NCBI GenBank assembly: GCA_964016885.1
Contig: OZ024740.1
Span: forward strand, 108,500,001-108,564,000
Length of the DNA stretch: 64,000 nucleotides
Source of the DNA: Eledone cirrhosa
Lineage: Eukaryota
Reading direction: 5' to 3'
Below, one piece after another: positions 2,602-64,000 of this stretch. A program made the translations under genes and the position numbers. The notes under the pieces were generated by a model. It did no database searches, was not told the DNA's origin, and was given only the letters and a program-made list of their open reading frames with translations. Positions within the stretch are counted from its first letter, which is position 1; the number at the start of each line of letters is the position of its first letter.

Positions 2602-2969
2602 CACCATAAGCTTGTGCAGAGCCAGTAGAATAAACACTAATATTATATAGATAACATTAATAACACTAATATTATATAGATGATAGCACATGACAACCTC
2701 CTTTGCACTGGTGATATGATAAAATGCACCCAAAACACTCTATGGTGATAGGCAGGACATCAGGATGTAAAAACCATGCCAAAACAAGTAGCCAGACATG
2801 CCCTCTGACCTATCTGGGAGGAAAGTAGCTCCAATTAAGGACTGACTTAATCTGTGATGACAGAAAAACAGACATTAAATGGTGATAACAACATAGATGC
2901 TGACAACAAAAACTTGGCCAAACCAGTAAAACGGTGAGGATTATGATGATAATATATATATATATATAT

Positions 2970-3194
2970 CAAGTATAAGCGAAGGAAAAAAGAGTGTTCT
3001 ATGTATAAAACAGAGCTATTTAATTAGAAAGTGAACAACACAATATATAACTACTCCATTACCAAAGGTTTCAGGATCCTAGACAGTATTAACATATGTT
3101 TAGTTCCGAACTAGACGTATGTTAATACTGTCTAGGGCCCTGAAACCTTTGGTAATGGAGTAGTTATATATTGTGTTGTTCACTTTCTAATTAA
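2970..3194 (-). mobile_element. PLE-derived fold-back unit in (TA)n with 3' half of a hammerhead
   Basis: 87-bp arms 3020-3194 centred on 3107 (4 transitions between arms); GAAA-CC-TTT-GG-TA hammerhead helix III in each arm; bulged tail hairpin at 2996-3016 on minus. Confidence 0.7.
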
Positions 3195-5147: not shown

Positions 5148-5215
5148 ATAGAAATGACATTCCTGATGATTTCATATGAATGAAACAGTTCTAGTCCTGT
5201 AGAAGTCATTTCTAT
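5148..5215 (+). ncRNA. type I hammerhead ribozyme
   Basis: stem I ATAGAAATGAC(A)TTC/GAAGTCATTTCTAT; CTGATGA 5163-5169; stem II TTC-ATAT-GAA; GAAA 5182-5185; stem III CAG/CTG; GTA cleavage triplet. Confidence 0.9.
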
Positions 5216-6180: not shown

Positions 6181-7445
6181 ATCATCACCGTTTTACGTCC
6201 GTTCTTCCACGCTAGCATGGGTTAGACGGGTTGTCCTGTTGTGGGCAGTGTCTGGTCGGCTGACCATGCCTTGCTCATACAGGAACTGATCTGGCTTGAT
6301 TTCTAACACCAACCTCATTTACAGTGAGTGCTGGGTGCTTTTTCGTGGCGCCTACACGTCCACTTTACAGTGTGGGCTGGGTGCTTTTTTTGCCATGGCA
6401 CCTCCACGACCACCTTGCGGTGGGGGGTGTGGGGGCATATTGTCTATATGCTTCAGCTTGTACCCATGGGAGGTCGGGTACTCTGTATTACTGCGTGACG
6501 CCAGAAATCACGGTCGTGTGTCATTGCCTTTGAGAGGTGTAATTGGGTAAGGTCGGCTTTTATCACCTTATCCCAGGTCATCTTGGGTCTCCCCACTCCG
6601 CGGTTTCCATCAACTTCTAGTGCTCTGCACCTTTTTATGCAGCTGTCATCCTTCATACGCATCACGTGTCCATACCAGCGCAACAGCCTCTCCTGCACAC
6701 AGCATTTGATTCCTCTTATGCTCAGTCTCTCTCTCAATTCATTTATGCTTTGTCGTTCACGTATATTACTGTTCCACATCCATCGGAGCATGCAGGCTTC
6801 ATTTCTCTCTAATCTACGTAAGTCTTCCACCTTCAGCGCCAAGGTCTCACTACCATGCAACATTGCTGTTCGGATACACGCATCATACAGTCTGCCTTTC
6901 ATTCTGAGGGAGAAGCCTTTTGCAGCTAGCAGTGGTAGTAGTTCCCTAAACTTCTTCCATCTCGTTCTTACCCTAGTTATTGTACTTTCTGAACACCCAC
7001 CTCCGTTGCTAATTCGGTCACCTAGGTAGCAGAAGCTGTCTACTGTTTCTACAGAGCCCTCCCAGAGATTGGTGGTACTTGTTTCCTGTGGCTGTTTGCT
7101 GCTTGCTGTCTCAGCACAGCTGCTGCATGTGAAGCCTACATTCTTAATTAAGCTTCCTGAGATCCCGCTACATCTCTTGTGTACCCATTGTTTGCATTTG
7201 GGGAAGAGAATGGAGTTCCTACCTACACCTTTCCTACATACTGAGCAAGGCCATTTCCCTGAGGGGATCTGGGTTCTGTTTTCTCGTCTACTTACAAGGA
7301 CCTTAGTCTTTGTCATGTTGACTTTGAGACCCTTTCTTTCTAGTCCCTGCTTCCAAGTTTGGAATTTATTCTCTAGTTCTACCATAGATTCAGCTATGAG
7401 TGCGAGGTCATCAGCATACAGGAGTTCCCATGGGCATCCGGTCTT
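6181..7445 (-). mobile_element. 5'-truncated RTE-clade LINE (RT C-terminal half plus 3' UTR)
   Basis: ELLYADDL, GLKVNMTKTK, SFCYLG, MLHGSET, LRWYGHVMRM, GRPK-TW motifs; the N-terminal part of track ORF 6453-7595 is microsatellite read-through. Confidence 0.95.
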
Positions 7446-7521
7446 GTGTGTATATATGTATATACACACATATATATACATATATATGTGTGTATATATG
7501 TATGTATATATATCTATATAT

Positions 7522-8706
7522 ATCTCTATTATAAAGCTGATGGCCGTATGTATGTAACAAACTTTTCGCCAAATGGCTGGACAAAACAGCACCAAATTTA
7601 TACCATAGATGTAACTTTTTCCAAGTAAGAAAGTGAAGGTATTTTTGTCTACTAAATTTAGTTAAAGGATTAAAGATATTTTATTGTTTATTTAAATATT
7701 CACTGCTTTAAAATTTTCAGATGTCAACACTTCCAGTTAGCAATCTCTCTCTTTCTTAGTCTGTCTTTTTAGATATATACATAGCTATAACGTTACGCCC
7801 TTATAATATCTGTCTGTATGTCTGGCTGTTTGCATTACGAAAACCATTCAGTACATTGGCTTCGCTACCTGCGTGTGTGTATATATATGTATATATAGTG
7901 TGTGTATATATAGTGTGTGTGTGTGTATATAGTGTGTATATATATATAGTGTTAATATCATAAATAAGAGACAGTTTAATTTGTACATTTTATTACAGCA
8001 TTCCTTTATACATATATATACATACATGTTATTTACAGTTGTATAAAAAAGAAGTATAATTGTTTCTACTTTTGGCACAAGGCTAGCAATTATCCCAGTA
8101 TATTACTGGTACTTTATTATATATAATATATATAATACAACATTCCTCTCTCTTTCTTACTCTGTCTTTTTAGATAGATTCATAGCTATAACGTCGCGCC
8201 CTTATAATATCTCTGTCTGGCTGCCTGTCTGCATTGACTTTGCTTCTAACCAACTTTTAATTAATTATATATAAGTTCCGTCTAACCCATGCTAGCATGG
8301 AAGAACGGACGTAAAACGGTGATGATGATGATGATGAATTATATATTCGTATACATATTTTCAACAGTAATACTGTACTATATATTTTCAACAGTAATAC
8401 TATACTATACTATATATTTTCAACAGTAATACTATAATATATGTATTCAACAGTAATACTATACTATATATTTTCAACAGTAACACTATAATATATATTT
8501 TCAGCAGTAATACTATACTATATATTTTCAACAGTAATACTATACTATATATTTTCAACAGTAATACTGTACTATATATTTTCACCAGTAATACTGTACT
8601 ATATATTTTCAACAGTAATACTATACTATATATTTTCAACAGTAATACTATACTACACAGACGGCTTATCGTCTGTTTATCCAAGCGAAGTTAGGTACGT
8701 CAGCTA
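7522..8706 (+). mobile_element. non-autonomous Helitron-like element with internal minisatellite
   Basis: 5' TCTCTATTATAAAG start; 3' CCAAGCGAAGTTAGG..CAGCTA end resembles a degenerate hairpin+CTAG; internal duplication 7740-7840/8140-8235. Confidence 0.45.
8352..8655. repeat. 27-bp minisatellite (~11 copies)
   Basis: unit TATATTTTCAACAGTAATACTATACTA. Confidence 0.95.
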
Positions 8707-11700
8707 TATATATATATATATATATATATGGATGCTGTAGAACACGTCAATGGTAGCCGGGCACCAGCCAGACGGGCCAACTAGTACATATATAAATATA
8801 ACAAAATAAGATGCTGAGGTTACATAGATTGTTTAATCATTATAATTATTTCCACGGTTCTCCATGCAATCGAGAAGTCCTTCATGCATTTGTTGTTGTT
8901 ATGAGAACGGTATCCTCAGATGATATCCGATATGTTTGGCAGGAAAAAACACACATCCTATTGCTTGTGTGCTCAGCAGACCAGCTAGATTTTTGAAATT
9001 TCCATCAGTGACCTCAAATAATTGACTCATCGATTAAGGGAAAATTTGTTGCATCATATCCTCTGCCCCCCCCCCCCCCCCTGCATCCTTCGTTAATATT
9101 GATTGTTGCTATGGTTCAAAATAAATAAACATTATAACATGGAAGATCAATAAAATTAATCAATCAATAATTATTGATCTAATGAAGCAATCACCATATC
9201 CTCAATGTAAACTTGATCCAATTCAACAACATAACTTTTAATAATTACTGGCCATGATCACTTCTAATATCTTTAAGAAAAGCATCAACATCACAGTCAC
9301 ACTTTCTCCTTTCCACTATTAATCCCTTTTAATAGCAAACCACCTGAAACCACCTCTGGTGTTCAATACACACCTGTTTATTTTAAATTGTTTATATTTA
9401 TCTGAAAATCTTTGATCATAATTTTATGTGAGAAACTTAATATTCTAAACAGTAGCTTAACCTTTAACATCCTGTAATGATTTAGTAGAAACTATTTCAA
9501 AATGGGCTTAATTCAAATGTTTATAGAATCTTTACTATTGGACAGTTGGATTGTTGTGAAAATATGTAGTAAATGCAATGCAGTCATAGTACTCTTTTGT
9601 ACTTTTCAAGAATGTCTTCCCAATGTGGTATCATATGGTATGGGATGTTAAGAGTTGATAATGAGAAAGTTATATTATTAAATCCTTCCAAATGGAAGTA
9701 GCATTGCAAAAGACTATAAAAAAGAGGGAAGGAGCAAGAAATATTAAGCAGTCAAAGAAAGGGGGAAAGGGTGACAGGCAGCATCTTATATTAAGAAAAG
9801 GGTTAACCTAACGTCTTGTGTCTATGTTGTTGTTGTTTAACTCCAGGTCAATCTTTATCCAGCAGATCCATCCATGTTCAAAAGTATTTCATCTGTAAAC
9901 ATCCTGTCTTTTTTTTCCTGGGTCTCTAAGACTGCATTATCTAATGTGTCTTTCTTTCTTTTAAGACGGTAAGGTGTGATTTGAGGAAGATTTGAATGAC
10001 ATTTCTAACAGGTTAAGCAACCAGGTAGAGATTTCCCCATTGGCTTGTGTATATAAAATAGGATGGTAGAAACAACTGATTTTTGGACAATATATCTCAC
10101 AGTATTTGATTAAGTCCCTTGGCATTCTGGATTTAAATCACACTCATGGATGACATTGCCTTTCATCATTCTAAAGTCAATAAAATAAGTACCAATTATG
10201 TACTGGGGAATGTAATCGATTATATTCCCCTCCACCGAAATTGTGGATTCATGGCCTATATTAGAAATCTGTTTAGCACCAGGTCAACCTTGATTATGCT
10301 GGCATGGGTTGGACAGGTCTATAAAATCTGAGTTACTTCTTATTCAGAGTTATTATATTCCCAGATAGATAGGAAGGTCACATCTTGCTTGTATGTTCCA
10401 ATTTTGGCATAGTTTCTACACCTGGATGCCCTTTTTAAAACCCACTACCCTACAGAGTGTACTGGGTACATTTTATCATGGCACAGACTCTAAGAGGATG
10501 TTTTGTCAGCTGTATTGCTAAAAAATCTATCATGTCCTACATTGCCTTACCAGTGACTTAACTGGGCACATTTTATTGTGACAATAATTCAAGAAAGGGT
10601 ACTTTCTCCCCTACAAAAATAAAGGGTCCTCTGTGTCATTTGTCATTGTCTCCACTTGTTCATCAACTACTTGACAGAATATACTGGCTGCATTTAAACA
10701 TGGCATCAATTTTAGAAGGGGGTGTTTGTCCTGTACAAAGTTAAAGAACACCATTTATCTGAACACAAATACTCGGGTATTTGTATAGAGACATCAGGGC
10801 AGCAAGAAGCTGCTACTACTACTGCTGCTGGTGGTGGTGTTTCAGCAGCATGTAATATTGGAAAATGTAACCCATACCAGTAGGTTCAATTCATGATAGT
10901 ATGAAAAACTGATGTAAAATAATGATGATAATGAAAAGGCTGAAGAAGAAGAGAGTAAGAGTGTGAAGTGGGGAAACAGAGAGGGTGAAAGGGGAGAGAG
11001 AGGGAGACAGTGATAGCTACATGGTTGTTTGTTGATAGGTTATGAGTTGAAGATATCATTAGCAATTACCATCATCATAATTTTACTTTTTTTTTAATGC
11101 TTATAAGGGTTGGACAGGTCATTACAGACCAAGTCAGTACTTTATCAGAGCAATAAATAAATATATAAATAAACAATTTTTTTAATACCAAAACAGAAAA
11201 TAGAATTTTTATTTCCATAGCCAGCTGAAGTCTTTCATGTGTCTGATTAATCAAAAGCTAAAGTTCTTAGAATCAATGTAGTGTTGTTTTCTAAGAAGAA
11301 GAAAAAAGAGAATTTTTTTAATATTTGCCTTTAACAAACAACATTGTTTTGATTCATTGAAAATATAGTCTTTCTGACAGTTCAATGCTTCTGTGAGATA
11401 ATGGTTAAAAGAAGCCACAAATATTAATATTTTCTAATTTAGGCCCAAGACTAGCAATCTGGAAGAAGGAGAAAGTCAATTATATTTACCCTAGAATGTG
11501 ACTGATACTTTATTTTATCAACTTGAGAAGGATGAAAGGCAAAGTTGACTTTTGAAACCAGAAATATAAAGGGCCATAACTAAATGCTGCAAAGCATTTT
11601 GTCCAATGCTCTACCAATTCTGTTAATCTATCACCCAACAAATATTGTTAATAGTTCTTTTTAACATTGGCATAAGACCAATAATTTTTGGGAAGGGGAC

Positions 11701-12019
11701 AGTTGATTATATCAACCCTAGTATGTAATTGGTACTTTGTTTAATCAACCTTAGAAGGATGAAAGGTAAAGTTGATTTTGGCAAAGTTTTAAATTAGAAC
11801 ATAAAAGGCCATAACTAAATGCTGCAAAGCATTTTGTCTGACACTCTCCTGGTATTGCCAATTCCCTGCCCTACAGATATTGTAAATAATAACAATTTGT
11901 TTAGGTAAAAAAAAAGATAAAATAATTATCTCAATAACTAAGAGAAAACACACAAAAAGGAAACAGTTTAGGTGTGTTATGAAAAAAAGAAAGGAAAAGA
12001 ACAAGAACCAATCATCAAA

Positions 12020-12732
12020 TCAGACCAAGGAAGCAACGTTCCCTTTGGTCTTTCCATTGCTGATACTTTCTGTCATTAGATCAGACCAAGGAAACAATAT
12101 TTCCATTGCTGATAATATCTGTAATTAGATCAGACCAAAGAAACAATGTTTCCATTGGTCTTTCCATTACTGATAATATCTGTAATTAGATCAGACCAAA
12201 GAAACAATGTTTCCATTGGTCTTTCCATTGCTGATAATATCTGTAATTAGATCAGACCAAAGAAACAATGTTTCCATTGGTCTTTCCATTACTGATAATA
12301 TCTGTAATTAGATCAGACCAAAGAAACAATGTTTCCATTGGTCTTTCCATTGCTGATAATATCTGTAATTAGATTAGACCAAAGAAACAATGTTTCCATT
12401 GGTCTTTCCATTACTGATACTATCTGTCATTAGATCAGACCAAAGAAACAATGTTTCCATTGGTCTTTCCATTACTGATACTATCTGTCATTAGATCAGA
12501 CCAAAGAAACAATGTTTCCATTGGTCTTTCCATTACTGATACTATCTGTCATTAGATTAGACCAAGGAAACAATGTTTCCATTGGACTTTCCATTGCTGA
12601 TAATATCTGTAATTAGATCAGACCAAAGAAACAATGTTTCCATTGGTCTTTCCATTGCTGATACTATCTGTCATTAGATTAGACCAAGGAAACAATGTTT
12701 CCATTGGTCTTTCCATTGCTGATAATATCTGT
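12020..12732. repeat. 59-bp minisatellite (~12 copies), each unit containing a hairpin
   Basis: unit GATCAGACCAAAGAAACAATGTTTCCATTGGTCTTTCCATTRCTGATAATATCTGTAATTA; a single related unit at about 18111-18165. Confidence 0.95.
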
Positions 12733-12949
12733 CGTTTTTTTAGATCATTGCTGATACTATCTGCTGGTCACAATTCTTGCTAGGATTTTAACTCAGAATG
12801 TACAGAATAGGATCAGATATTGCAAATCATCTTGTCTGACACTTTTAACAATTCTGCTAGCCCCTCACCTCCAATGTGGTACTTTATTTATCAACCCCAA
12901 AAGGATGAAAGACAAAGTTGAAAATTATCAAGAATTTGGAGAGATTTAA

Positions 12950-15129: not shown

Positions 15130-15849
15130 TTAAACACCATTCTTGTATATTTTGTGTATGTAGTAACTGGGTTAAAGCTTCTTTTATATTAGTTTGATTG
15201 TAATTCTTGCATAAAATTGATATTATCGGCAAAAAGGTTCTGTGTGAGGGTGCTGTTTATATCTTCACTTAAGCCAATCCTATATATGGAGTTCATTCAT
15301 CATTATCCATGTTTTCCATGCTGGCATAGGTTGAAAAATAATATCTTGTTCGTATATTCCATTTTGATATGGTTTCTACAGATGGATGCCCTTCTTAAGA
15401 ACAACAATTATAAAGTGCACTGGGTGTTTTTTTATCAAAACACCATCACTGGAGAGAGAGGTTTTTATTGTCATTGACATGACTAGAGAATCTTTTCTAC
15501 CTTACAATATCTCCATTTGATCACCAACCATTTTACAGAGTGTACTGGGTGTATTTTATCACAATTCCAGATTGTCCCTTGTAAGTATAATATCATTACA
15601 GAAAACTTGTCTTTTTAGAATATAATCCTGTGATACTTTATCTAATGAGAAACAATGATATTAATACCTGCGGAGGGCAACCAAGGATGAAGACAAGTTA
15701 CCTATGGCTCTTGTTATGGCTACTGAAACTTTAACAAAGCAAAATACCTTTAGCATCCTGAAGTAGGGAATAGAATCAAATGCTTTCTCCTAAATACCTT
15801 CAAATTAACCAAATTATTGTCATACTGCTAACATTATTGTTGTTTACAG

Positions 15850-20069: not shown

Positions 20070-22195
20070 TCATCATCATCATCATCATCAACGTTTAACG
20101 TCCGTGTTCCACGCTTGCATGGGTTTGGACGGGGGTATTCCCACTTGAGGCAAGAGTGATTGTCTTGCTCGCATAGGACTGTCTGGCAAGTTTTCTACAG
20201 CTGGATGCCCTTCCTAACACCAAGCACATTTACAGTGTGGGGCTGGGAGGTTTTTACTGTGTTGCCTACACGGCCACATTACAGCGTGGACTGTGTGTTT
20301 TTTTGTCGTGACACCTACACGATCTCATTTGTTTCGGCCTGGATGGTGTGGCACCAACATAACTTTACATAGAAGGGGGTGGTGTGGATGGGGTGGGGGT
20401 GGTGGGACGGGGTGTATTTTGTTAGAGATGCCTACTGGCTGTAGTAGGTTTTACTATGTATTTAGGTAAGGCGGGTCTTCTCTATTACTGAGTACCGCCA
20501 AAGGTCTCGGTCCAGTGACATTGTCTTGGAGAGATGTAAGTGTGTGAGGTCGGAGTTTATCAGCTCGTCCCAGATTTTTCTAGGTCTGCCTATTCCGTGG
20601 CTACCGTCTATCTTTATTGCCCTGCACTTTGTTATACAGCTATCGACTTTCATGCGCATCACGTGTCCATACCAAAGTAGCCTTCTCTCGAGTAAACAAC
20701 ATCTGATCCCTCTTATTTCTAATTTTTTCCTTAGTTCGTTTATGCTTTGCCATTCACGTATATTACTATTACACATCCAGTGGAGCATGCAAGCTTCGTT
20801 CCTCTCTAGTCTGCGTATATCCTCTACACACAATGCCCAGGTCTCACTGCCATGCAACATTGCTGTTCGTATGCAGGCATCATACAACCTGCCTTTCATT
20901 TTTAGGGAGAACCCTTTAGCAGCTAATAGTGGTATAAGCTCTCTGAACTTTTTCCATCCAGTTCTGACTCTAGCTACTGTACTTTCAGAGCACCCTCCCC
21001 CACTGCTGATTTTGTCACCCAGGTAACGGAAGCTGTCCACTATTTCTATAGAGCCCTCTGCGCAGTTGTAAGAGCTAGTATTTTGTGGGCACTTGCTGCT
21101 ACTTATTGCACCAGAGCACCGGCCACATGTAAAATCTATGTTCTTAGTTAGCTTACCTGTGATCCCACTACATCTTTTATGCACCCATACTTTGCATTTG
21201 GGACATAAAATGGAGTTTCTACCTACGCCTTTCCTACACACTGAGCATGGCCATTTCCCGGAAGGGACCGCCGCCTTATTTTCTTTCCTACAAACTAGAA
21301 CTTTAGTTTTAGCCAGGTTAATTTTAAGGCCTTTTGATTCTAGGCCGTGCTTCCATGTTTGGAATTTCTTCTCTAGCTCGGCTATTGATTCAGCTATGAG
21401 TGTCAGGTCGTCTGCGTATAGGAGTTCCCATGGGCAGCCGGTCTTGAACTCCTCTGTTATAGCCTGAAGGGCAATAATAAATAGTAGGGGGCTGAGAACA
21501 GAGCCCTGATGGACGCCAACTTTTACGCTAAACTCTTCACTATATTCGTTGTTAATTCTAACCTTGCTGACTGTTTCTTTATACATGGCTTGTATAGCTC
21601 TCACAAGCCATTCGTCGACACCTAGTTTTCTAAGGGCCCACCAGATAATGGAGCGGGGGACTCTGTCGAAGGCTTTCTCCAAGTCGACAAAAGCTAAGTA
21701 GAGGGGTTTACCTTTAGCTAGGTACTTCTCCTGTAGTTGTCGTACAATGAAAAGAGTGTCTGTGGTACTTTTGCCTGACACAAACCCGAACTGCATTTCA
21801 TCTAGATCAATTCTCTCTCTGATTAGTTGCGCTATTACTTTTTCCGTGACCTTCATGACCTGGTCGATTAATTTAATGCCTCTATAGTTACTCCTATCTA
21901 GGGCATCTCCTTTACCCTTATAACAGTTAACGATGATGCTGCTATGCCAGTCCTTCGGAACAACCCCATTCTGTACGACTTGGTTAACTATGCGGGTGAC
22001 CATGGTGTGTCCCACCGTGCCAGATGCCTTCAGCATCTCAGCAACTATTTCCGAAGGCCCAGCCACCTTACCCGTCTTCATATCCTTGATTGCCTTACTT
22101 ATTATACTACCCTCGACTAACACTGCTGGTCCCTCTATTGGGTCGATGTGGGGGAGACTGTCTTTCTCCCATTTATTCTCCTCATTTGTACTGGA
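20070..22195 (-). mobile_element. 5'-truncated RTE-clade LINE
   Basis: Open RT ORF followed by 3' UTR and (GAT)n tail. Confidence 0.95.
20462..22123 (-). CDS. RTE reverse transcriptase (endonuclease domain missing) with embedded C4HC3 finger
   Basis: NYRGIKL, QFGF, FVDLEKAFD, GVHQGSVLSP, YADD, CSVC..CPKCKVWVHKRC..CGRC, FRYLG. Confidence 0.92.
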   Translation of the reverse strand: MLVEGSIISKAIKDMKTGKVAGPSEIVAEMLKASGTVGHTMVTRIVNQVVQNGVVPKDWHSSIIVNCYKGKGDALDRSNYRGIKLIDQVMKVTEKVIAQLIRERIDLDEMQFGFVSGKSTTDTLFIVRQLQEKYLAKGKPLYLAFVDLEKAFDRVPRSIIWWALRKLGVDEWLVRAIQAMYKETVSKVRINNEYSEEFSVKVGVHQGSVLSPLLFIIALQAITEEFKTGCPWELLYADDLTLIAESIAELEKKFQTWKHGLESKGLKINLAKTKVLVCRKENKAAVPSGKWPCSVCRKGVGRNSILCPKCKVWVHKRCSGITGKLTKNIDFTCGRCSGAISSSKCPQNTSSYNCAEGSIEIVDSFRYLGDKISSGGGCSESTVARVRTGWKKFRELIPLLAAKGFSLKMKGRLYDACIRTAMLHGSETWALCVEDIRRLERNEACMLHWMCNSNIREWQSINELRKKLEIRGIRCCLLERRLLWYGHVMRMKVDSCITKCRAIKIDGSHGIGRPRKIWDELINSDLTHLHLSKTMSLDRDLWRYSVIEKTRLT

Positions 22196-22954
22196 GAGAA
22201 TTCATCTAACTCATACAAGTATGGAAAAACTGACATAAAAATGATCATGATGACGATGATAACAACAATGGCATTGATGATAAAAACAAAGGTCTGTTTC
22301 CCCAGTGGCTAGCATTACTTTATCAGTAAATATCAGTGAAGCTTCAACTATTTCTGAATCCATTTATATAATCAAAACAATTTATGAAATTCTCAATGAA
22401 TGTAATGTTTTGATCCATTGATGTGCCCTCCGTAGGTTTCAACAATGTGTATCCAAACTAGACATCCAGTTTATGAATTAATGTGTAAGTGGTCAAATAT
22501 TCCACAGACATGTGTGCCGTTAACATAATTCCCAAGCTGAATCAACCTGACACAGTAACACAGCCGAACCTTTGACTTACAGGTAAGGTTCATCTAACAG
22601 GCTGCCACTCAGTTTCTGTCTTCCAAATTTCAGTCACATGGCTTAAATCAACCAGAGACTATGGTAAAAACACTTGTCCAAGATGCCACACCATGTGATT
22701 GAACCTGTGACCTCATGATTACAAAGCTAACTTCTTAACCACACCAGCCATACCTGTATCCATTATTAAAACAGTGGTAGCAGCAATCAGGCCAGTTTAT
22801 CTTATTTGATATTCTGCTGAAGAAGAGTTACGAGAATTTAATATAGGCAGAACTAACTATTGAACAATAGCAAACATAATTTTTCATTCTCGTTCACTGC
22901 TAATTGCTGTTTTATTATTGGTTTATATTAAAGGAGAGCTGTTGTGTATTGAGG

Positions 22955-40753: not shown

Positions 40754-40801
40754 TATACAATGATATTAAATAAATGGAAACTATATTTATAAAACCATAT
40801 T

Positions 40802-40865
40802 TATTTTATTATATATATTTCAAGGGCAACCAAACAACATTGGTACGCTTTCATCAGATAAAATA
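40802..40865 (-). ncRNA. type I hammerhead ribozyme
   Basis: TATTTTAT-CTGATGA-AAGCGTACCAA..TTGGTTGCCCTT-GAAA-TATATA-TA-ATAAAATA. Confidence 0.85.
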
Positions 40866-41543
40866 CAAAGTTTGTTTTATAAATAGAGACGTACCCATGA
40901 AAATCATACCTTATCGGTTGGAAATTCACTGGATAGTGGAAATATATTAGGGATTATTCAAACTTATGTGTGAATATGCAAATGAATATGTAAATAATTG
41001 AAAAACAACCGTTTATTTAAATGACACTGGAGAAAGAGAGAGAAAGAGAGAGAGAAAAAAATAATATTACGAGAGAGATAGAGAGAAGAAATTAAAATTA
41101 AGTAATTTTTAAAAATATATGAAAAATTTAAGAAATAAAAAATAAAGAATTAAAAAAAAAATTATTAAAATTAAAATTTAAATTAAAAATTTAAATTTTA
41201 AAATTTAAAAGTTAGGATCATATATGTATATATTTTAAGAAATTTTAAGAAGTGAAATTATAGCAAATATAGATATGATTTAGAGATAACAAGAGTGGAT
41301 AAGATTGTTATGGAAATAAGTAGAAATATTATAAGTGTAATTATAATTTATATATAGTTCTAAACGTTGAAATTAGGCGATGTTTACAAGAACTAAATAA
41401 ATTCGTACGTACATTAATAGAGTTCTTACATTTAATTATGAAGAAAATTTCCTCAACACACAATTTGCAAAATCTAGATAAAGCTGTGTTTCGGTGATGA
41501 TATTCTGCTTTTAATTGAAAATCATAGTAATTGTGAAATTAAT

Positions 41544-41728
41544 TGTTTCTACTTTAGGCACAAGGCCAGCAAATTACTCAGTGCATTACTGGTACTTTAT
41601 TTTATCGACCCCATAAGGATGAAAGGCAAAGTCAACCTCGGCGGGATTTGAACTCAGATTGTAAAGGGACGTAACTATGCTGGAAAGCATGGCGTCCGAC
41701 CCTCTACCGATACTGCCAATCCACCGCA
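41544..41728 (-). mobile_element. tRNA-derived SINE inserted in the PLE RT
   Basis: 20-bp target duplication ATAGTAATTGTGAAATTAAT at 41524-41543 and 41729-41748. Confidence 0.92.
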
Positions 41729-43981
41729 ATAGTAATTGTGAAATTAATAGAAAAAGAAAATCAATACAATTTTTCAATAGCTACAATCTTAAATTAGAAA
41801 TAGAGAATAACTATAAAATTGTTAACTTTTTAGACGTAACATTAAACCTTAACACAGGGCTCTACTATCCATTCTATAAAATTAATGAAAATCTAAACTA
41901 TGTAAGTTTTAACTCTAATCATCCTAGATCTATCAAGAACACTATTGTAAATTCTATCCAACAATGTATTTCACGCATCTCCGCTAATAAAAAACATTTT
42001 TGACGATAAGGCAGAATATTATAATGAAGCTTTAAATAGAGCAGGCTATATAAATAAGATTAAATACATCAACAACAGTGATAAGGCAAATAACCCTACT
42101 ATTAATTATAATTACAATAAAAAATTTAACTTAAACTCTAAAACTAACAGAAGAAATAGAACTAGAAATATTATTTGGTACTCACCACCATTCTCATTAA
42201 GCGTTAAAATACCTTTAGCAAAGCTATTCTTTAAAGCACTAGATAAATGTTTTCCAAAAGCCCATAGAGACCACTCAATCTTTAATAGACATACAATAAA
42301 ACTATCTTACTCTACTAGCACAAAATATAAATAAAATCAATAATAGAAATTTAAACCATAACCAAAATAGCAGTAATATCTCTAGCAATATCCAACATAA
42401 TTGTACCGTTCCGAATAACATCAACTCCGCTAAATGTAACTGTAGAATTAAATCAAACTGTCCTTTAAAAAATAAGTGCTTAGATAAGGACGTGGTCTAT
42501 AAATGCACAGTCAAAACCAGTGATAATATATTTAACTATGTAGGTTCAACTTCTACAGACTTTAAAAGTCGTTGGAATAATCACAAATGCTCTTTCCGAA
42601 AACTTGATAAAAAATCTTCAACTTCTCTATCAAACCTGATATGGAACTTAAAATGCAAAAATATGGACTATTCTTTAACTTGGGAAATAATTTCGAAGCA
42701 CCTGCCTACTGAAACACAGCTTTATCTAGATTTTGCAAATTGTGTGTTGAGGAAATTTTCTTCATACTTAAATGTAAGAACTCTATTAATGTACGGACGA
42801 ATTTATATAGTTCTTGTAAACATCGCCTAAATTCAACGTTTAGAACTATATATAAATTATAAGTACACTTATAATATTTCTACTTATTTCCATAACAATC
42901 TTATCCACTCTTGTTATCTCTAAATCATATCTATAATATTTGCTATAATTTCACTTCTTAAAATTTCTTAAAATATAGACATATGATCCTAACTTTTAAA
43001 TTTTTAATTTTTAATTTTAATAATTTTTTTTTTAATTCTTTATTTTTTATTTTTTATTTCTTAAATTTTTCATATATTTTTAAAAATTACTTATTTTTTT
43101 AAAAATTTACTTATCTCTTATAAATTTTTTTTTTAATTTTCCCGAATTTTTAATATTTAAAAAAAAAAGTTTTAATATCCTTTATTAGATTTATAACCAC
43201 TAACTAATTCAGGCTAAATATATTTTTCAACATTTATATCTTTAACATTTATACTTATTTTGACAAAATAGTCTCATACTAACGAATAAATAAACAAAAC
43301 TGGAGTTTTTTCCGTATCTTCCCAATTTAAAATATATAAATATAAATATTCTTATTAACTCAGTTAACTTAATTTAATTTAACTCAATATTTACTTACAT
43401 TAAATATAAACCAATATCCCTCATTAAAACAATTATCTATAACACGATATACCCATCTATCCATTTATCTATCTATTTATCTATTTATTGATTTATTTTT
43501 CTATTTATTTTTCTATCTATCTATTTTTCTATCTATTTATTTTTCCATATATTTTTCTATCTAATTTTCTATATATTTATTTTTCTATATATGTATTTAT
43601 TTTTCTATCTACTTATAACAGTAAATATTATATTAGAAAAGAATTTTAACAACTAAATAATCGTAAATATACGTACCATTAGTAGATATATACTTAAAAT
43701 TTATTCCCCCATATTAACGTTACATGAGTTCTATTCATGCTCTTGTTAATTTCTTCTCTCTATCTCTCTCGTAATAATATTATTTTTTTCTCTCCCTCTT
43801 TCTTCTCTCTCTTTCTCCAGTGTCATTTAAATAAACGGTTGTTTTTCAATTATTTACATATTCATTTGCATATTCACACATAAGTTTGAATATTCCCTAA
43901 TATATTTCCACTATCCAGTGAATTTCCAACCGATAAGGTATGATTTTCATGGGTACGTCTCTATTTATAAAACAAACTTTG

Positions 43982-44040
43982 TATTTTATCTGATGAAAGC
44001 GTACCAATGTTGTCTTGGTTGCCCTTGAAATAATAAAATA
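43982..44040 (+). ncRNA. type I hammerhead with helix III deleted
   Basis: Same as 40802-40865 but GAAA-TA-ATAAAATA (6-nt deletion). Confidence 0.7.
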
Positions 44041-44174
44041 AATATGGTTTTATAAATATAGTTTCCATTTATTTAATATCATTGAATATTTACTCCAGTA
44101 ACTTGTTGAGTGCTCTAAATCAGTTATAAACATTTATGTTTGTCGGACTTCCAACAAATTAAATACAACTTCTA

Positions 44175-44249
<75 letters not shown>

Positions 44250-47411: not shown

Positions 47412-47489
<78 letters not shown>

Positions 47490-47492
<3 letters not shown>

Positions 47493-47842
47493 GATATTAA
47501 CAAATGGAAACTATATTTATAAAACCATATCTATTTTATTATACATATTTCAAGGATACCATGTTAAATTATGGTGTGCTCCAAAAGTAACGGTTGCATT
47601 TTGAAAGAGTATGTCAAAATTTATTTATAAAACTGGTATATATTGTATTTTGTCTGATGAAAACATACCATAATTTAACATGGTATCCTTGAAATATGTA
47701 TAATAAAATAGATATGGTTTTATAAATATAGTTTCCATTTGTTAATATCGTATATTTACTCCAAATATTTGTCGAGTGCTTTATATCAGTTATAAAAATA
47801 TTTGCTTGTTGTATCCCAACAATTTAAATAGAACTTTTGCAT
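47490..47842 (+). mobile_element. non-coding PLE-derived fold-back unit with hammerhead (47646-47710)
   Basis: TATTTTGT-CTGATGA..GAAA-TATGTA-TA-ATAAAATA; same family as the end of the 40757-44178 PLE; (TA)n on both sides. Confidence 0.85.
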
Positions 47843-47860
47843 ATATATATATATATATAT

Positions 47861-48042
47861 AGATGATATTCTACAGGACTAGAACTGTTTCATTCATTAG
47901 AAATCATCAGGAATCTGATGATTTCTAATGAATGAAACAGTTCTAGTCCTGTAGAATCTCATCTATATTAAAACTTTTATACTCTGCTATGTATTGAGTA
48001 CCTTACTTACTGTGGTTACCTCCGATTCAACCCGGAATAACG
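47861..48042. ncRNA. head-to-head hammerhead pair plus tail
   Basis: Minus hammerhead 47868-47914 (ATTC/GAAT stem I) abuts plus core 47915-47957; same family as 5148-5300. Confidence 0.85.
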
Positions 48043-49126: not shown

Positions 49127-49572
49127 TGCAAAAGTTCTATTTAAATTGTTGGGATACAACAAGCAAATATTTTTATAACTGATATAAGCACTCGACAAGT
49201 ATTTGGAGTAACTATACGATATTAACAAATGGAAACTATATTTATAAAACCATATCTATTTCATTATACATATTTCAAGGACACCATGTTAAATTATGGT
49301 ATGCTTTCATCATACAAAATACAATATATACCAGTTTTATAAATAAATTTTAACATACCCTTTCAAAATGCAACCGTTACTTTTGGAATATCCTGATGTC
49401 TTCCAAAAGTAACGGTTGCATTTTGAAAGGGTATGTTAAAATGTATTTATAAAACTGGTATATATTGTATTTTGTATGATGAAAGCTTACCATAATTTAA
49501 CATGGTGTCCTTGAAATATGTATAATAAAATAGATATGGTTTTATAAATATAGTTTCCATTTGTTAATATCG

Positions 49573-49573
<1 letters not shown>
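49127..49573 (-). mobile_element. fold-back unit of the 47490 family, both hammerheads with ATGATGA core
   Basis: Arms about 49215-49388 and 49403-49573. Confidence 0.85.
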
Positions 49574-49599
<26 letters not shown>

Positions 49600-49603
<4 letters not shown>

Positions 49604-50633
49604 AGAAAAAATTTACGAAATGGAAATGCGGGTATATAGAATTTATTAGGTAACAATTGTTTCTATAGTGTATGAGTTACCTATACCTCGCTATTTGAAT
49701 AATACACAAATATTATCAAAAACCGAAAGTACACTGTAAGCCAACACACCATGTCATCAGACCTTTGTATTAGAATGATATGAAAATATTTTATACACTA
49801 GATAAAAGATAAAGAAGGAGGTAGGAAGAGAAGGGGAAGAGGGAAGTGAGTAAGGTGGAGGGAGTCTTAGGGTTTAAGACTGTCAGACTAGTAGAGATTG
49901 TGAAGAGAGAATGTTTTGGCAGCAGTTAGCTTAATGAGGCGTGCTAAGGTTGGCTGGGAAGTAGATACTTCTAGTGGTGTTGTTCGGACAAAATTTAGTT
50001 AGAGGGGTCAAAGTGGTACAATGTCACAGACAAGTTATTAGGGCTATTATAGTAGCAGGTTATTTCTAAAGGGGTCCAGAAAAACAGTGTTTAGTACTAT
50101 TATTATAGAAAGCCATATCTAGTGTATAAACATATAAGACAGAAATTTGCAAACGTTGGTGTAAAAAGGTAACATTATATGCATTTAAAAAAAGAAAAAG
50201 TCGTTTTCAAACGATGGTTACAGTATAGAGAACGTTCAATTTTGCTGTTCAAAAGTTTGTTTACCGACGTTAAAATGCAGTATATCTCTAAATTGCATAA
50301 CTTGCAGAATCGATGATTTTGCTGATATGCAGGCGCAGCTGCAATAATTTGCCAATCAAGGGAGAACGCTTGATTGTTCCTCCGAAGCTGCCAGGCTTTA
50401 TCGGCGAGGGTTGTTACGGAGCGCATTTTCTCGTGCCTGATCGAAGATCGATGTTGGTATAGGCGAGCCTTGAAAGAAGTTGCGGTACATCCGACGTAAT
50501 ACCATTTGTTAGTCCCGGAATTTATTGTACACCGGTAGACAATATTGCGTGCTAGGCACTGGTTATTCAGTGGGTACGTACCTGGTTTGGTGCAGTTACA
50601 ACAATTTTTATGTTTTGCAGTAGAATCCTGCAT
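49600..50633 (-). mobile_element. Penelope-like element 3' fragment (GIY-YIG plus 3' region)
   Basis: CNC..PLNNQCL, IVYRC..YYVGCTATSFKARLYQH, CKLCNLE. Confidence 0.9.
49648..49764 (-). ncRNA. type I hammerhead with ~90-nt stem II
   Basis: AGGT-CTGATGA-C-ATGGTGTG...TACACTAT-A-GAAA-CAATTG-TT-ACCT. Confidence 0.85.
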
Positions 50634-51569
50634 ATATATATATTATTCTTGTTTGTATATTATATTTCCGTTGCTATATAGTTGTGTATGTATGTTTGTT
50701 TCTGTTGCTATACGCATGTGGGTGTTTGGTGGAAGCGTGTATCTATCTATCTATATGTGTGTCTGTTGTTCCATGTAATTGTATGTATATGTTTCTATTA
50801 TTCTATGCACGTGTGTGTTTGCATGTCTGTATGTGTTTATATATTTCCATGGCTATATACGTGTGTATATTTGGTTGTGTGTGTAAGAATATATTGAAAA
50901 AGTTTTATACAAATCGAAAATCTAGATAAAAAGTAAAAGTAGAAATGAACATGAATATATTTAAAGATCCTTGTTTTTCTTTAAATCCAACAATAGATAT
51001 TTTTATATTTGCCAGGCATAATTACATCTTTAGGAAGATGCTTCACATTCATTCAGCTTCGCTGAATATAGCCTTGGCCAAGTGTTGATGTCATCAGCTG
51101 GTGTCCCAAGCCAAAAGTATGATATTATTTCCGATTACCCTTTATATTTTGAACTATAGGCATAATAACATCTTCAAGAAGACGCCTCACATTCATTCAC
51201 CTTTGGTGAACATAGCCTTAGTCAGGAGGGTGTTGACGCTAGTGGGTCAGCAGTAGTAGCCAAATTACTGTCCATCTTCGCCTCCTGGCTTCCACATTAT
51301 CTCTCTCCTCCTCCAAAACCAACAAGAGATCCTTTCTGCAGTCTCCCACATCCTACGAATTTCACCATTTTCTCTTCCTATCATTCCATGGCCGTGAGCA
51401 TTCTCCATAGTGAATGAGCCGGTAATCCCCTGTAACCCACCTCGACTGGAAATAGCCATGCCTCTCAACCTTTCTCCTTACACTATTGCACAAGTACATT
51501 AATATTATCTACTTTTTGTTTATATATTTGTCTTTTGCATTTTCAATAGAACTTTCAATCATCTTTATA

Positions 51570-52310
51570 AACTTAGCCCAGTAGACGTCCCTTCTCCTTC
51601 TCCCTCTGTTGACGCCAAGTCTCTCCTGAGTATTTGAGTGCCATCCAGTGCAACCTGGCCTCGAACAGGCTAGCGCGCCAGCTCGACCAGCACCGCTTTG
51701 CATGTTATCGCGCGGCCTCACAACCCCACGGCGGTGCCTGGCTCCATGTCTTACCCTCATTCTCTGCTGGCACGCAGCTGGACAATGGTAGCATATGCAT
51801 CGGGGTTTCCCTGAGGATCGGCCTCCGGATCTGCGAACCACACAAATGTCGCTGCAGATCCACCGTAGACTCTTTCGGCCTCCACCCACTTCCCCTCCCA
51901 GCTCGAGATAGTGAGGCTGGACCGAGAGGACGGCATGACCGTCTTCCCGTTCCATAGTGGTAAACCCCCTCATCTTGGATGCAACATGTAGTGACACATT
52001 CTCCAGCGACAACCTGGTGCACTCTGCGACTAACGCAGGCTCTGCTGCACTTCGGGCTGAGGAGGGTAAACTCTCCATGTATCTGTTGCTCTCCGACAGG
52101 TTTGCAATCGAGCCCCTGCCAGTGTAGACTTCTAGTGTCCTTGGCTCTAGGGCTACCTCCTTACTTACCACGATAGGCGCGGAGCTGATGAGCCGCAGGT
52201 GTGAACCTCTCGAGATGGAATGGCTCTTCCAGCGCATCTCGCTTACCATCCTCCGGGAAAACGCCTCTATTCTGTCCGCCGGGGACGTGGGGCGGCCAGC
52301 GCGTGGGATC
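51570..52310 (+). mobile_element. CRE-like 3' fragment, degenerate
   Basis: Nucleotide and protein match to 57010-57830 (GAWLHVLPS, CRC..H, QRISLTILR) with internal deletions. Confidence 0.9.
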
Positions 52311-55270: not shown

Positions 55271-55940
55271 AGAATTCAGCACGCACACATGCGAGCAACT
55301 GAGCAGTTTGTCAAAGACGATATTCTCAATGGACGTGCTTACAATATTTGAATATAACTGAACCGTCGTGTCATTTAATTTGAAAAGTGGAGCAAAGTAA
55401 AAGGAAAATAGTGAATTTGGAGTGTCAATCTCTTGTGATTTTTTTTTTTTTTTTTCCAATACCGGACTTACAGTTTTCCAGGATTTATACTCATTTTTTT
55501 TTTTTTTTTTTTTCTTCAAAAGGATGGAGGCGTTTTATCTCCTCATGAAACTGACATTACTTAATGATGTTCGTCATCTATGGCTTATTCATATGTACTA
55601 TTTCACTGGCCTTGTGCCAAAAGTAGAAACAATTATTTCATAACTTTATAGAACTATTAGAATGTTTGTGCAGTGTTCTGTGTCCAGCCAGGTTTGTACA
55701 ACAGGTAAGAAAAATGATGATTCGGTGACGGTTTCTTCTAATAGGAGCCTCTTCCACCTCGGAAGATCGAAGTGTGTTTTCTTGTCTTCTTCAATACTTT
55801 CATAAACGGCTTCGGAGATTTAAAACTTATGTTTCAATTGGTGCTTCCATTTCCACACGGTTCTATTGTCTTATTTACAAAAATATTTATTTCTATATAT
55901 TTCTTTATTTATTTCTCTTCTTTTAGTATAATATAGCAAG

Positions 55941-57859
55941 TTGTCACCACTGGATGAGGAGTTTAGTCCGGTCCAACTGGGTCTCGGCGTGTCCGGTGGC
56001 TGTGAGGGAGCCTCTCATGCAATCAGGCAGTTCTTCAGCAGCTGCCCATCGGTACCGGCATCCAGGGACTCCAGGCACCTCATTGTCAAGCTTGCCATAA
56101 GGAATGCCTTTAACTCTTTACGCCGGGATCATCTGCTCGAGGCCTGCCTCAGCCGAGCCCCCTCTGCCTACCCGCTGGCCTACCTGTCATATGGAGCCCC
56201 GAGCATGCTCCTAGCTGCTGATACGGTCATAACCTCGGCTACTGGGGTCCAACAGGGCGACCCATTGGGACCCCTCCTGTTCGCCCTTGGTATTGACCAC
56301 ATCGCCCGGAGTATCACGGCCCCTCTCAACGTTTGGTATCTGGATGATGCTACGTTGGGCGGGCCCGTACGGACGGTCTGCCAAGACCTTCAATCGGTGA
56401 TTGCTGCCCTGGCGGGAATCGGCCTCCAGGTCAACTCGGCCAAGTCGGAGGTGGTGAACGTCAGCCTCGATGCTGTGAGCTTTTCAGCCTCCGTCTTGGA
56501 CGTGCGGTCCATTCTCCGCCAAGTTCAGGTGACCCCCCAAAGAGCATGTCCTCATCCTCGGGTCACCGATCCACCCGCCGGCCATCCGCTCCACCATCAG
56601 GTCCAGGCTTCAACAGCTCCAGACTCTCACGAGCCGACTGGGCTTGATTGACGGCCACCCAGCTCTCTTTCTGCTGAGGAACTGCTTCGCCATGCCGAAG
56701 CTCCTCTATACACTCTGCAGCGCTCCATGCTACACCCAGACATCTCTCCTCGCTGACCTCGATACTTGTATCCGAGCAGCAGCCGAGGGGATATGCAACG
56801 TCAAGTTTGACGACATAGGGTGGCAACAGGCCACTTTACCGGTCAGGTATGGCGGCCTAGGCCGCCGGTCCCCGATCTCACTAGCTTTGCAGGCGTATCT
56901 TTCGTCGGTAACCTCGTGCCGCGTCCTCGTCAGCAGGGTTCTTCAAAACACAACAGAACCCTGTGTTCAGAGAACGTGAGGCCGCCTGTGAGACGTCAGA
57001 CCGGCTGGGACTTGGCCCAGTAGACGTCCCTCCTCTTTCTCCCCCTATTATCGTCAAGTCCCCCCAACGCACTTGGGATGCCATCCAGTGCAGCCTGGCC
57101 TCAGACAGGCTCACGCGCCAGCTCGACCAGCACCGCCTTGCTTGTTTTCGTGCGGCCTCCAAACCCCACAGTGGTGCCTGGCTCCATGCTCTGCCCTCCT
57201 TCTCCACTGGCACGCAGCTAGACAACCATAGCCTGCGAATCGGCGTTTCTCTGAGGCTCGGCCTCCGGATCTGCCAGCCACACCAATGTCGCTGCGGTTC
57301 CTTCGTGGACTCTTTCGGCCTCCACCCGCTTTCCTGTCGCCACAGTGCCGGCCGCATTCCACGCCATACTGCCCTCAACGAGGTCATTAAGCATGGCTTG
57401 GACGCTGCAGGCTTCCCTACCCAGTTCAAGCCGGTGGGGCTGGATCGAGGGGACGGCAAAAGGCCAGATTGCATGACCATCTTCCCGTTCCGCGGTGGCA
57501 AACCCCTCGTCTGGGATGCTACTTGCACCGACACTTTCTGCAGTCGCAACCTGGTGCAGTCTGCAACTGACTCAGGTTCTGCTGCACGTCGGGCTGAGGG
57601 GGCCAAACTCCTCAAATACCGGTCGCTCTCCGACAGGTTTGCGGTCGTTCCCCTGGCAGTGGAAACTTCTGGTCTCCTCGGCCCCAGGGCTACCTCCTTA
57701 CTCACCACCATAGGCGCTGAGCTGGCCAGCCGTAGGTGTGAGCCTCGCGAGTTGGAGTGGCTTTTCCAGCGCGTCTCCCTTGCCGTCCTCCGGGGAAACG
57801 CCTTCTCCATTCTGTCCGCCGGGACTGTGGATGGGCCCCATCGCGTACCAATACATTAG
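55941..57859 (+). mobile_element. CRE-clade non-LTR retrotransposon, RT + CCHC + RLE, two frameshifts
   Basis: QLGLGVSGGCEG, NAFNS, GVQQGDPLGPLLF, WYLDD, LP..GGLG, CRC-x8-H-x3-C, RH, RPD..WD, K..KY, ETSG, RGNA. Confidence 0.95.
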
Positions 57860-62359: not shown

Positions 62360-62648
62360 CAGAAGTTATATTTAATTTGTTGGGATTCAACAAGCTTAAA
62401 CATTTTTATAGCTGATATAAAGCACTCAGCAATTAGTGGAGTAAATACACAATATATTAATAAATGGAAACTATATTTATAAAACCATATTTATTTTATT
62501 ATACATATTTCAAGGGCAACCAAGGCAAATTATGGTGCACTTTCATATCTGATGAAAACGCACCATAATTTGCCTTGGTTGCCCTTGAAATATGTATAAT
62601 AAAATAAATATGGTTTTATAAATATAGTTTCCATTTATTAATATATTA
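62360..62648. mobile_element. fold-back unit (47490 family) turning inside the hammerhead core
   Basis: Plus-strand CTGATGA at 62549 and GAAA at 62587; arms meet at TTTCAT-ATCTG-ATGAAA. Confidence 0.85.
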
Positions 62649-63146: not shown

Positions 63147-63230
<84 letters not shown>

Positions 63231-63246
63231 TATATATGTGTGTGTG

Positions 63247-63580
63247 TGAAGTATTTCCGTAGGAAAGGTACAGGAAAAGAGAGTGCTCTATGTAGGCTAC
63301 AGAGCTTTTTAGTTATGTAATAAACAACATAAGATAATTATTTTATTTACCAGTGGTTTCTTGAAGACAGATATTTATATCTGTCTTCAGTCGTCAGAAC
63401 GAATAAATAACATGGTGTGTTTATTAAATATGGATTTGAAATATGGTTTTCAAATCCATATTTAATAAACACACCATGTTATTTATTCGTTCTGACGACT
63501 GAAGACAGATATAAATATCTGTCTTCAAGAAACCACTGGTAAATGATATAATTATCTTATGTTGCTTATTACATAACTAT
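63247..63580. ncRNA. fold-back unit with complete hammerheads on both strands (minus 63343-63402, plus 63487-63546)
   Basis: TCGTT-CTGACGA-C-TGAAGACAGATAT-AA-ATATCTGTCTTCA-A-GAAA-CCA-C-TGG-TA-AATGA. Confidence 0.9.
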
Positions 63581-63589
63581 ATATATATA

Positions 63590-63883
63590 AACAATGGGTT
63601 ATTTAATTTGTTGAATTTTCAACAAATTTAATTTATAACATATTAAAAGCACTCAACAGTCTTCTTCTGGAGTATAATATCAATAATATTAATAAATGGA
63701 AACTATCTTTATAAAAACCATATTTATTTTATTATATATATTTCAAGGGTACCAATATTTTGGTACGCGCTCATCAGATAAAATACAAAATTTGGTTTAC
63801 AGATAGTGACATATTCAGATATTGCTACCCTTGAAATATATATAATAAAATAAATATGGTTTTTATAAAGATAGTTTCCATTT
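63590..63883 (-). mobile_element. fold-back unit (47490 family) with hammerhead at 63727-63783
   Basis: TTTTAT-CTGATGA-GCGC-GTACCAA-AATA-TTGGTAC-CCTT-GAAA-TATATA-TA-ATAAAA. Confidence 0.8.
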
Positions 63884-64000
63884 GTGGATTGGCAGTATCG
63901 GTAGAGGGTCGGACGCCATGCTTTGACGCAGAGAGTTACGCCCCTTGCCATTCTGAGTTCAAATCCCGTCGAGGTTATATTTGCCTTTCATCCTTACGGG

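Follow-up and report, generated by a model that had tools for sequence, protein, structure and literature searches.

The window analysed here comprises 64,000 nucleotides of Eledone cirrhosa genomic DNA. Close to its right end lies a palindrome of 270 bp (63310-63579), which consists of two arms of 132 bp each (63310-63441 and 63448-63579) separated by a 6-nt spacer. The arms differ at three paired positions (63324/63565, 63342/63547 and 63344/63545). The near-perfect palindrome of about 270 bp claimed in the preliminary description is therefore borne out. Of the wider span given there (63247-63580), the part from 63310 to 63579 is palindromic, whereas 63247-63309 is occupied by a non-palindromic, one-sided tail. 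The predicted fold of the palindrome has an energy of -202.5 kcal/mol (z = -35.6), which none of 200 shuffled sequences reached. The longest ATG frame at the locus encodes 19 aa. All three mismatches are located in the outer 35 bp of the arms; central homogenisation or selection on the cores was considered as a cause and rejected, since other palindromes carry mismatches in their inner part.

The palindrome is embedded in TA repeats. To the left, a (TA)n microsatellite ending in (TG)6 was found (63150-63248; TRF counts 44.5 TA copies at 63150-63237), and a short (TA)n run adjoins the right arm (63580-63590). The 3' tail on the left (63249-63309, minus strand) is about 61 bp long and contains two small hairpins. 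It was delimited by its lack of symmetry, its fold, a drop in sequencing depth and a match near 3 kb of the window, where the one-sided flank of the fold-back 3020-3194 agrees with it at 82.5% over 40 bp. The sense strand of the element is the minus strand. The left arm (minus strand) is interpreted as an outward-pointing, 5'-truncated PLE 3' repeat (pLTR) and the right arm (plus strand) as an inverted copy of the same repeat, which stops at the tail boundary and has no tail of its own. The locus thus combines insertion into (TA)n with a tail at one end only. The 6-nt junction between the arms (63442-63447) departs from the letters of the family at 63443 and 63445. An 8-mer reaching into it (63439-63446) repeats positions 63426-63433, which suggests that the junction is a locally templated filler made by slippage on a nearby template; a 5-nt filler of this kind has a chance of about 0.001 at a given site and was spotted post hoc.

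Hammerhead motifs and folding of transcripts

Each arm carries a type I hammerhead, a call based on our own descriptor and on comparison with published PLE hammerheads, not on Rfam. The minus-strand motif extends over 63345-63400 (C3 at 63397, A17 at 63348) and the plus-strand motif over 63487-63546 (C3 at 63492, G12 at 63529, A17 at 63541). The CUGACGA...GAAA...GUA core is complete on each strand and both hammerheads point outward, with one predicted cleavage site per strand, after 63541 (plus) and after 63348 (minus). A strict hammerhead descriptor gave 6 matches in the 64-kb window, whereas 100 shuffled sequences averaged 0.02 matches and never had more than 1. In the palindrome region, Rfam reported no hammerhead at the gathering score and none among 62 matches at E ≤ 10; these sub-threshold matches, mostly of microRNA type, were dismissed as generic hairpin matches. 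A second complete core of the studied family on the same strand was not found in the 64-kb window, and the 23-nt core pattern had no match in metagenome or viral contigs.

The hammerheads had been described as intact, with a stem II of 13 bp on each strand. This applies to the cores but not to the stems. Stem II comprises 12 bp (63500-63511/63516-63527 on the plus strand) and is capped by a loop of 4 nt, which a 13th pair would reduce to 2 nt. The core-adjacent position of this stem is a C·A mismatch, so that the G10.1-C11.1 pair is absent. Stem I is shortened to 5 bp on the plus strand (one G·U) and to 3 bp on the minus strand (one G·U, then C·A), whereas the letters of the family majority give 6 Watson-Crick pairs. 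Stem III has 3 bp in both hammerheads. Helices I, II and III are all able to form on both strands, and the ribozyme fold is not the lowest-energy fold of the arm. Helix III and loop 3 are palindromic and capable of dimer formation, with -10.2 kcal/mol for the self-duplex and -0.6 kcal/mol for the monomer. In the predicted fold of the arm at 63445-63579, stem I is prolonged by a long imperfect helix which closes near the tail-less end. The same extension is present in the family at 43960-44075.

In read-through RNA from either strand, the antisense arm is transcribed first. The hairpin lies below the ribozyme fold by 75.8 kcal/mol on the plus strand and by 71.2 kcal/mol on the minus strand. Prefix folding of the plus strand predicted all 44 sense-arm bases preceding C3 to be paired already, and 94 of 94 at the cleavage site. 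The competition between hairpin and ribozyme folding that had been proposed for this arrangement is therefore overstated. According to this model, read-through RNA would fold into the hairpin of 132 bp, for which self-cleavage in cis is not expected, and would serve as a double-stranded RNA substrate. In isolated arms the ribozyme fold is only 5.0-5.5 kcal/mol away, and because the folding model omits Mg2+ and tertiary contacts, these energies do not show inactivity.

Family copies and fold-backs in the window

Four of the 9 listed sequencing runs were compared with positions 63245-63900 at 80% likeness. In one of them (X1) the outer end of one arm reaches a summed depth of 775k and that of the other 251k; the tail is covered at 300-360k, and the cores at about 18-22k. 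From the 3' end to the core it falls approximately 14- to 35-fold, a drop in summed contig depth, which is not copy number, and to which divergent subfamilies may contribute. This profile is that of 5' truncation with an optional tail. Ten fold-back joints were read, with 21 further joints outside the reading, and all ten centres are different. Seven of the 10 lie within 5 nt of symmetry; the placement of 4 of the 10 is less certain, as they fall in stem II, which is self-complementary. Both cores are kept in 3 of the 10. When its filler is taken into account, the joint 63369>63514 turns out asymmetric. Joint depths in X1 are 12-25, with 4-21 for single long contigs, and at 63443 and 63445 the family letter, not the junction of the studied palindrome, accounts for about 99% of the depth. 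Its centre has therefore not been amplified.

At two paired positions both arms share a minority letter (63400/63489, with the majority at 15,286 of 16,434 for 63489, and 63419/63470), and hence both arms derive from one template. At each of the three arm differences one arm agrees with the family majority and the other deviates: the left arm at 63344, the right arm at 63547 and 63565. One shared change converts an A-U pair of stem I into G·U, and two of the three private changes break pairs of this stem. No listed contig or read in the four runs spans the whole palindrome. The family is also present in a genomic RAD-seq run. No RNA data set appeared among the listed runs, which speaks neither for nor against expression. 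Pile-ups of read ends in run X7 at 63336-63339 and 63550-63553 were considered as ribozyme ends and rejected; they lie on AATT and we take them to be cuts of the RAD-seq enzyme.

Including the studied palindrome, 14 fold-backs picked from inverted-repeat scans were catalogued in the 64-kb window. In 12 of these, one end is located within 20 bp of (TA)4+, as compared with 8.6% of random 250-bp intervals, and most show a gap of 50-110 bp to (TA)n on the other side. The arm which owns the spacer is not consistently the tail arm. Apart from a distant relative at 3 kb (2969-3194), which carries the same tail, the arm of the studied palindrome has no significant match in the window. The palindrome of this relative (3020-3194) contains no complete core; its centre lies inside the extended stem II region, so that neither arm keeps CUGANGA. 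A 90-bp palindrome with a 4-nt spacer (47868-47957) belongs to another family, which is also present as a single copy at 5163-5201 (plus strand); each strand of this palindrome holds a CUGAUGA/GAAA core. Only one core is present in the fold-backs 47487-47755, 62453-62645 and 63694-63883. In 49213-49576 (176-bp arms, 12-nt spacer), the hammerhead cores of both arms carry the same C3 mutation and were therefore copied from one already mutated template. Since other fold-backs have one, no or mutated cores, the keeping of both cores is not required.

Four places in the window match proteins of 700-760 aa by tblastn (41.7-42.8, 46.0-47.3, 50.2-50.7 and 58.3-58.6 kb). The 9 homologues that were aligned, out of 150 listed, show the RW motif, DKT, YRDD, CxCx5C, CxxC and CxH, matching the Hydra-clade features given in section 11 of PMC8557442. 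CxCx5C occurs in the neighbouring window fragments and DKT in their full-length homologues. In Pfam, GIY-YIG stayed below the cut-off in 2 of 5 PLE-like fragments of the window, and neither RT nor GIY-YIG was reported for any of 8 long homologues. The clade call rests on the motifs because this Pfam support is weak. A search for longer protein homologues yielded none from 186 candidates, a PDB sequence search with P0058 gave two chance matches only, and cluster look-ups supplied no informative names. The textbook layout is seen in 40762-44070: a 3' ORF fragment carries a hammerhead at its end, and this end recurs in inverted orientation ahead of the fragment. The surrounding segment (40762-44180) has the appearance of the 3' half of a Hydra-type PLE (RT end and GIY-YIG); its tail is confined to the right side, and a SINE-like repeat interrupts the segment at about 41538-41727. 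A hammerhead-like sequence at 49652-49760 (minus strand), with about 90 nt from CUGAUGA to GAAA and a palindromic loop III, is located downstream of the GIY-YIG fragment 50175-50642, which shares its strand.

Several further repeats accompany the fold-backs. The segment 62810-62934 has perfect 44-bp arms without spacer, followed by a 24-bp tandem duplication, and a unique stretch on the left only. A SINE-like repeat (63884-64000), which we take to be octopus-like, adjoins the right arm of the fold-back 63694-63883 and has at least 8 other copies in the window. LINE-type RT frames are located at 20462-22201 and 6453-7661 (both minus strand), the first with an RVT_1 domain and an inserted PHD-like finger. 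At 55932-57859 (plus strand) a GC-rich RT fragment is followed by a Cys/His-rich frame, presumably a restriction-like endonuclease, with a related copy near 51963-52262. Tandem arrays occupy 11978-12887 (61-bp period) and 8316-8709 (27-bp period). A bacterial promoter and terminator scan was set aside as inapplicable to an animal genome.

Comparison with published PLEs, retrozymes and viroid-like RNAs

Hydra-clade PLEs are described in PMC8557442 as carrying an adjacent inverted, 5'-truncated copy and a one-sided tail of 30-40 bp. The locus shares with them the (TA)n target, the hammerhead near the 3' end and the inverted 5'-truncated copy at the 5' end. Its 9-nt helix III geometry is that of Hydra-1_oBim and, by our own count from the table of that study, of 19 of 25 Hydra-clade families. 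In the same table, positions 10.1 and 11.1 are unpaired in 15 of the 25 families, so the G10.1-C11.1 pair does not define this clade. Differences were also found. Stem II has 12 bp here and 3-7 bp in all 25 tabulated families, and the mismatch is C·A instead of U·U or U·C (C·A is given for PLE-X1_cBra). The tail of about 61 bp exceeds the described 30-40 bp; furthermore, there is no ORF, and the arms meet across 6 nt and not around kilobases as in the elements presented there. We regard the C·A mismatch as a probable trait of the family, and the length of stem II (12 bp) as a modest variation.

Opposite-strand hammerheads in PLEs are an already published layout. Cervera and de la Pena 2014 (PMC4209133) report dual minimal PLE hammerheads on opposite strands, separated by about 100-700 bp; single minimal hammerheads showed no cleavage there, dimers low cleavage. 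In PMC8557442, the entry for Penelope-13_HM in File S2 gives an identical hammerhead on either strand, and its attached inverted copy is noted in File S1. The locus resembles the dual hammerheads of Schistosoma PLEs in the opposite strands, the palindromic, dimer-suited helix III, the long helix II and the short helix I. Unlike those described in that text, its cores are 95 bp apart within a near-perfect palindrome, G10.1-C11.1 is missing and helix III has 3 bp. In PMC11167929, an anole hammerhead motif depended on protein, and insertion in vitro did not require the motif.

With non-LTR retrozymes, as presented in PMC7229834 and bioRxiv 10.64898/2026.07.22.740005, the locus has in common that it is non-coding, PLE-derived and equipped with a type I hammerhead. 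Retrozymes, as characterised there, are head-to-tail tandems with at least two same-strand hammerheads and release circles, whereas the palindrome is a single inverted pair with one site per strand; tandem units with at least two same-strand hammerheads were not found at the locus. A resemblance to viroid-like RNAs had been noted as well. It holds for the layout, since Avsunviroidae and FHVd-LR (PMC7461866) also combine a rod-like fold, opposed ribozyme domains and both polarities. It does not extend to the mechanism. Viroid-like RNAs of this kind are circular RNA replicons that lack a DNA form, as demonstrated for FHVd-LR, and their ribozymes cleave co-transcriptionally. The palindrome is genomic DNA with one motif and its 98% mirror copy, antisense-first on both strands, and lies within microsatellite-rich genomic DNA and not in an RNA-only replicon. 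One site per strand was found instead of two same-polarity cleavages that release a circle, and no tandem unit is present at the locus. It is a far-fetched idea that PLE fold-backs could seed viroid-like RNAs, in that retrozyme-like tandem amplification and arm drift would lead to rolling transcripts releasing rod-like circles with a ribozyme in either polarity, and that this locus or a sibling might already do so.

Origin and meaning of the palindrome

The locus is best explained, with a probability of roughly 0.87, as a 5'-truncated PLE insertion, probably of the Hydra clade or a non-coding dependant, which consists of a 3' repeat joined to its own inverted copy. The origin by PLE inversion suggested in the preliminary description is supported by the (TA)n target, the one-sided tail, the 5' truncation, the variable joints, the Hydra-type core geometry and the neighbouring elements. 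Judged from its sequence features, membership of the studied family in the Hydra clade is likely. No ORF at the locus or in the window could be tied to this family, and the RT-GIY-YIG ORF is absent from the truncated copy. The palindrome itself is most likely an inert, ordinary by-product of retrotransposition. Only because the truncation fell upstream of the hammerhead core is a hammerhead found on both strands.

Such an insertion could arise as follows. A PLE endonuclease would nick the (TA)n target seen at the locus, as known from the family. Reverse transcription would begin in the tail and halt about 195 nt in, some 44 nt past CUGA, at the observed truncation. The new DNA may then fold back and be copied, with locally templated filler at the turn, until copying stops at the tail-less end. 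Subsequently the arms have drifted neutrally, with the three one-arm changes found, two of which break stem I pairs. In intact elements, the hammerhead would be a dimer-type or protein-assisted ribozyme.

Fold-back copying is favoured over two independent cDNAs because the joints are near-symmetric. A course in which two independently primed cDNAs are joined 5'-to-5' with filler, or in which an inverted duplication follows the insertion, would be a variant of the same PLE origin and is possible but rather unlikely. The anole PLE protein is reported to nick and extend both target strands, with two start sites defining the tail (PMC11167929). Two cDNAs would also agree with the presence of the tail on one arm only, the second arm stopping at the tail boundary, and with the asymmetric cases (40762-44070, 47487-47755 and joint 63307>63445). 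However, the near-symmetry of 7 of 10 joints (≤5 nt) at unrelated positions would rarely be expected from independent truncation, the minority letters are common to both arms, and a post-insertion duplication would not halt at the tail boundary. An assembly or library fold-back artefact is extremely improbable. No listed piece spans the palindrome and such structures trouble assemblies, as stated in PMC8557442, but both arms contain one-arm departures from the family majority (one left, two right), the tail is on one side only and the filler is non-palindromic. Moreover, 13 other fold-backs in the window have mismatches of their own, and independent runs show fold-back joints of the same family.

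The abundance of the family and the long inverted arms around a tiny centre would also suit a non-autonomous mobile unit, MITE-like or a hairpin retroposon, which amplifies as a whole. We consider this very unlikely, as the centres differ among copies, the joints are of low depth (12-25 in X1), about 99% of the depth at 63443/63445 has the family letter and the ends are asymmetric. Instead of the fixed ends and uniform copies of MITEs and fold-back DNA transposons, ten different centres and a tail on one side were observed. Similarly little credence is given to a functional two-polarity ribozyme locus, whose outward transcripts from near the centre would cleave with protein help or as trans dimers. 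Both cores are complete, and transcripts initiated at 63410-63475 would reach the ribozyme fold at a cost of only 4.7-6.6 kcal/mol relative to the ensemble, as in the isolated arm (in the model without Mg2+ and tertiary contacts). PMC11167929 describes protein assistance of a PLE hammerhead in vitro. On the other hand, just 44 nt separate the centre from the core, two of the three changes after formation break stem I pairs and the shared change turns A-U into G·U. Elsewhere in the window, fold-backs occur with a single core, with no core at all or, as in 49213-49576, with an identical core mutation in their two arms.

As a single locus, the palindrome is of little weight by itself. The 14 fold-backs in 64 kb are good material on how PLEs make inverted copies, a mechanism called undefined in PMC8557442. 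Their number allows junction symmetry, fillers and tail side to be tabulated copy by copy. In the searched literature, from which many subscription papers are missing, no study dealing with the symmetry of PLE fold-back junctions was found. If transcribed, the fold-backs would provide, at high density, near-perfect hairpins as RNA substrates of Dicer or ADAR. For sequence scans, two-strand hammerheads in animal DNA should be read first as PLE inversions and not as viroid-like elements.
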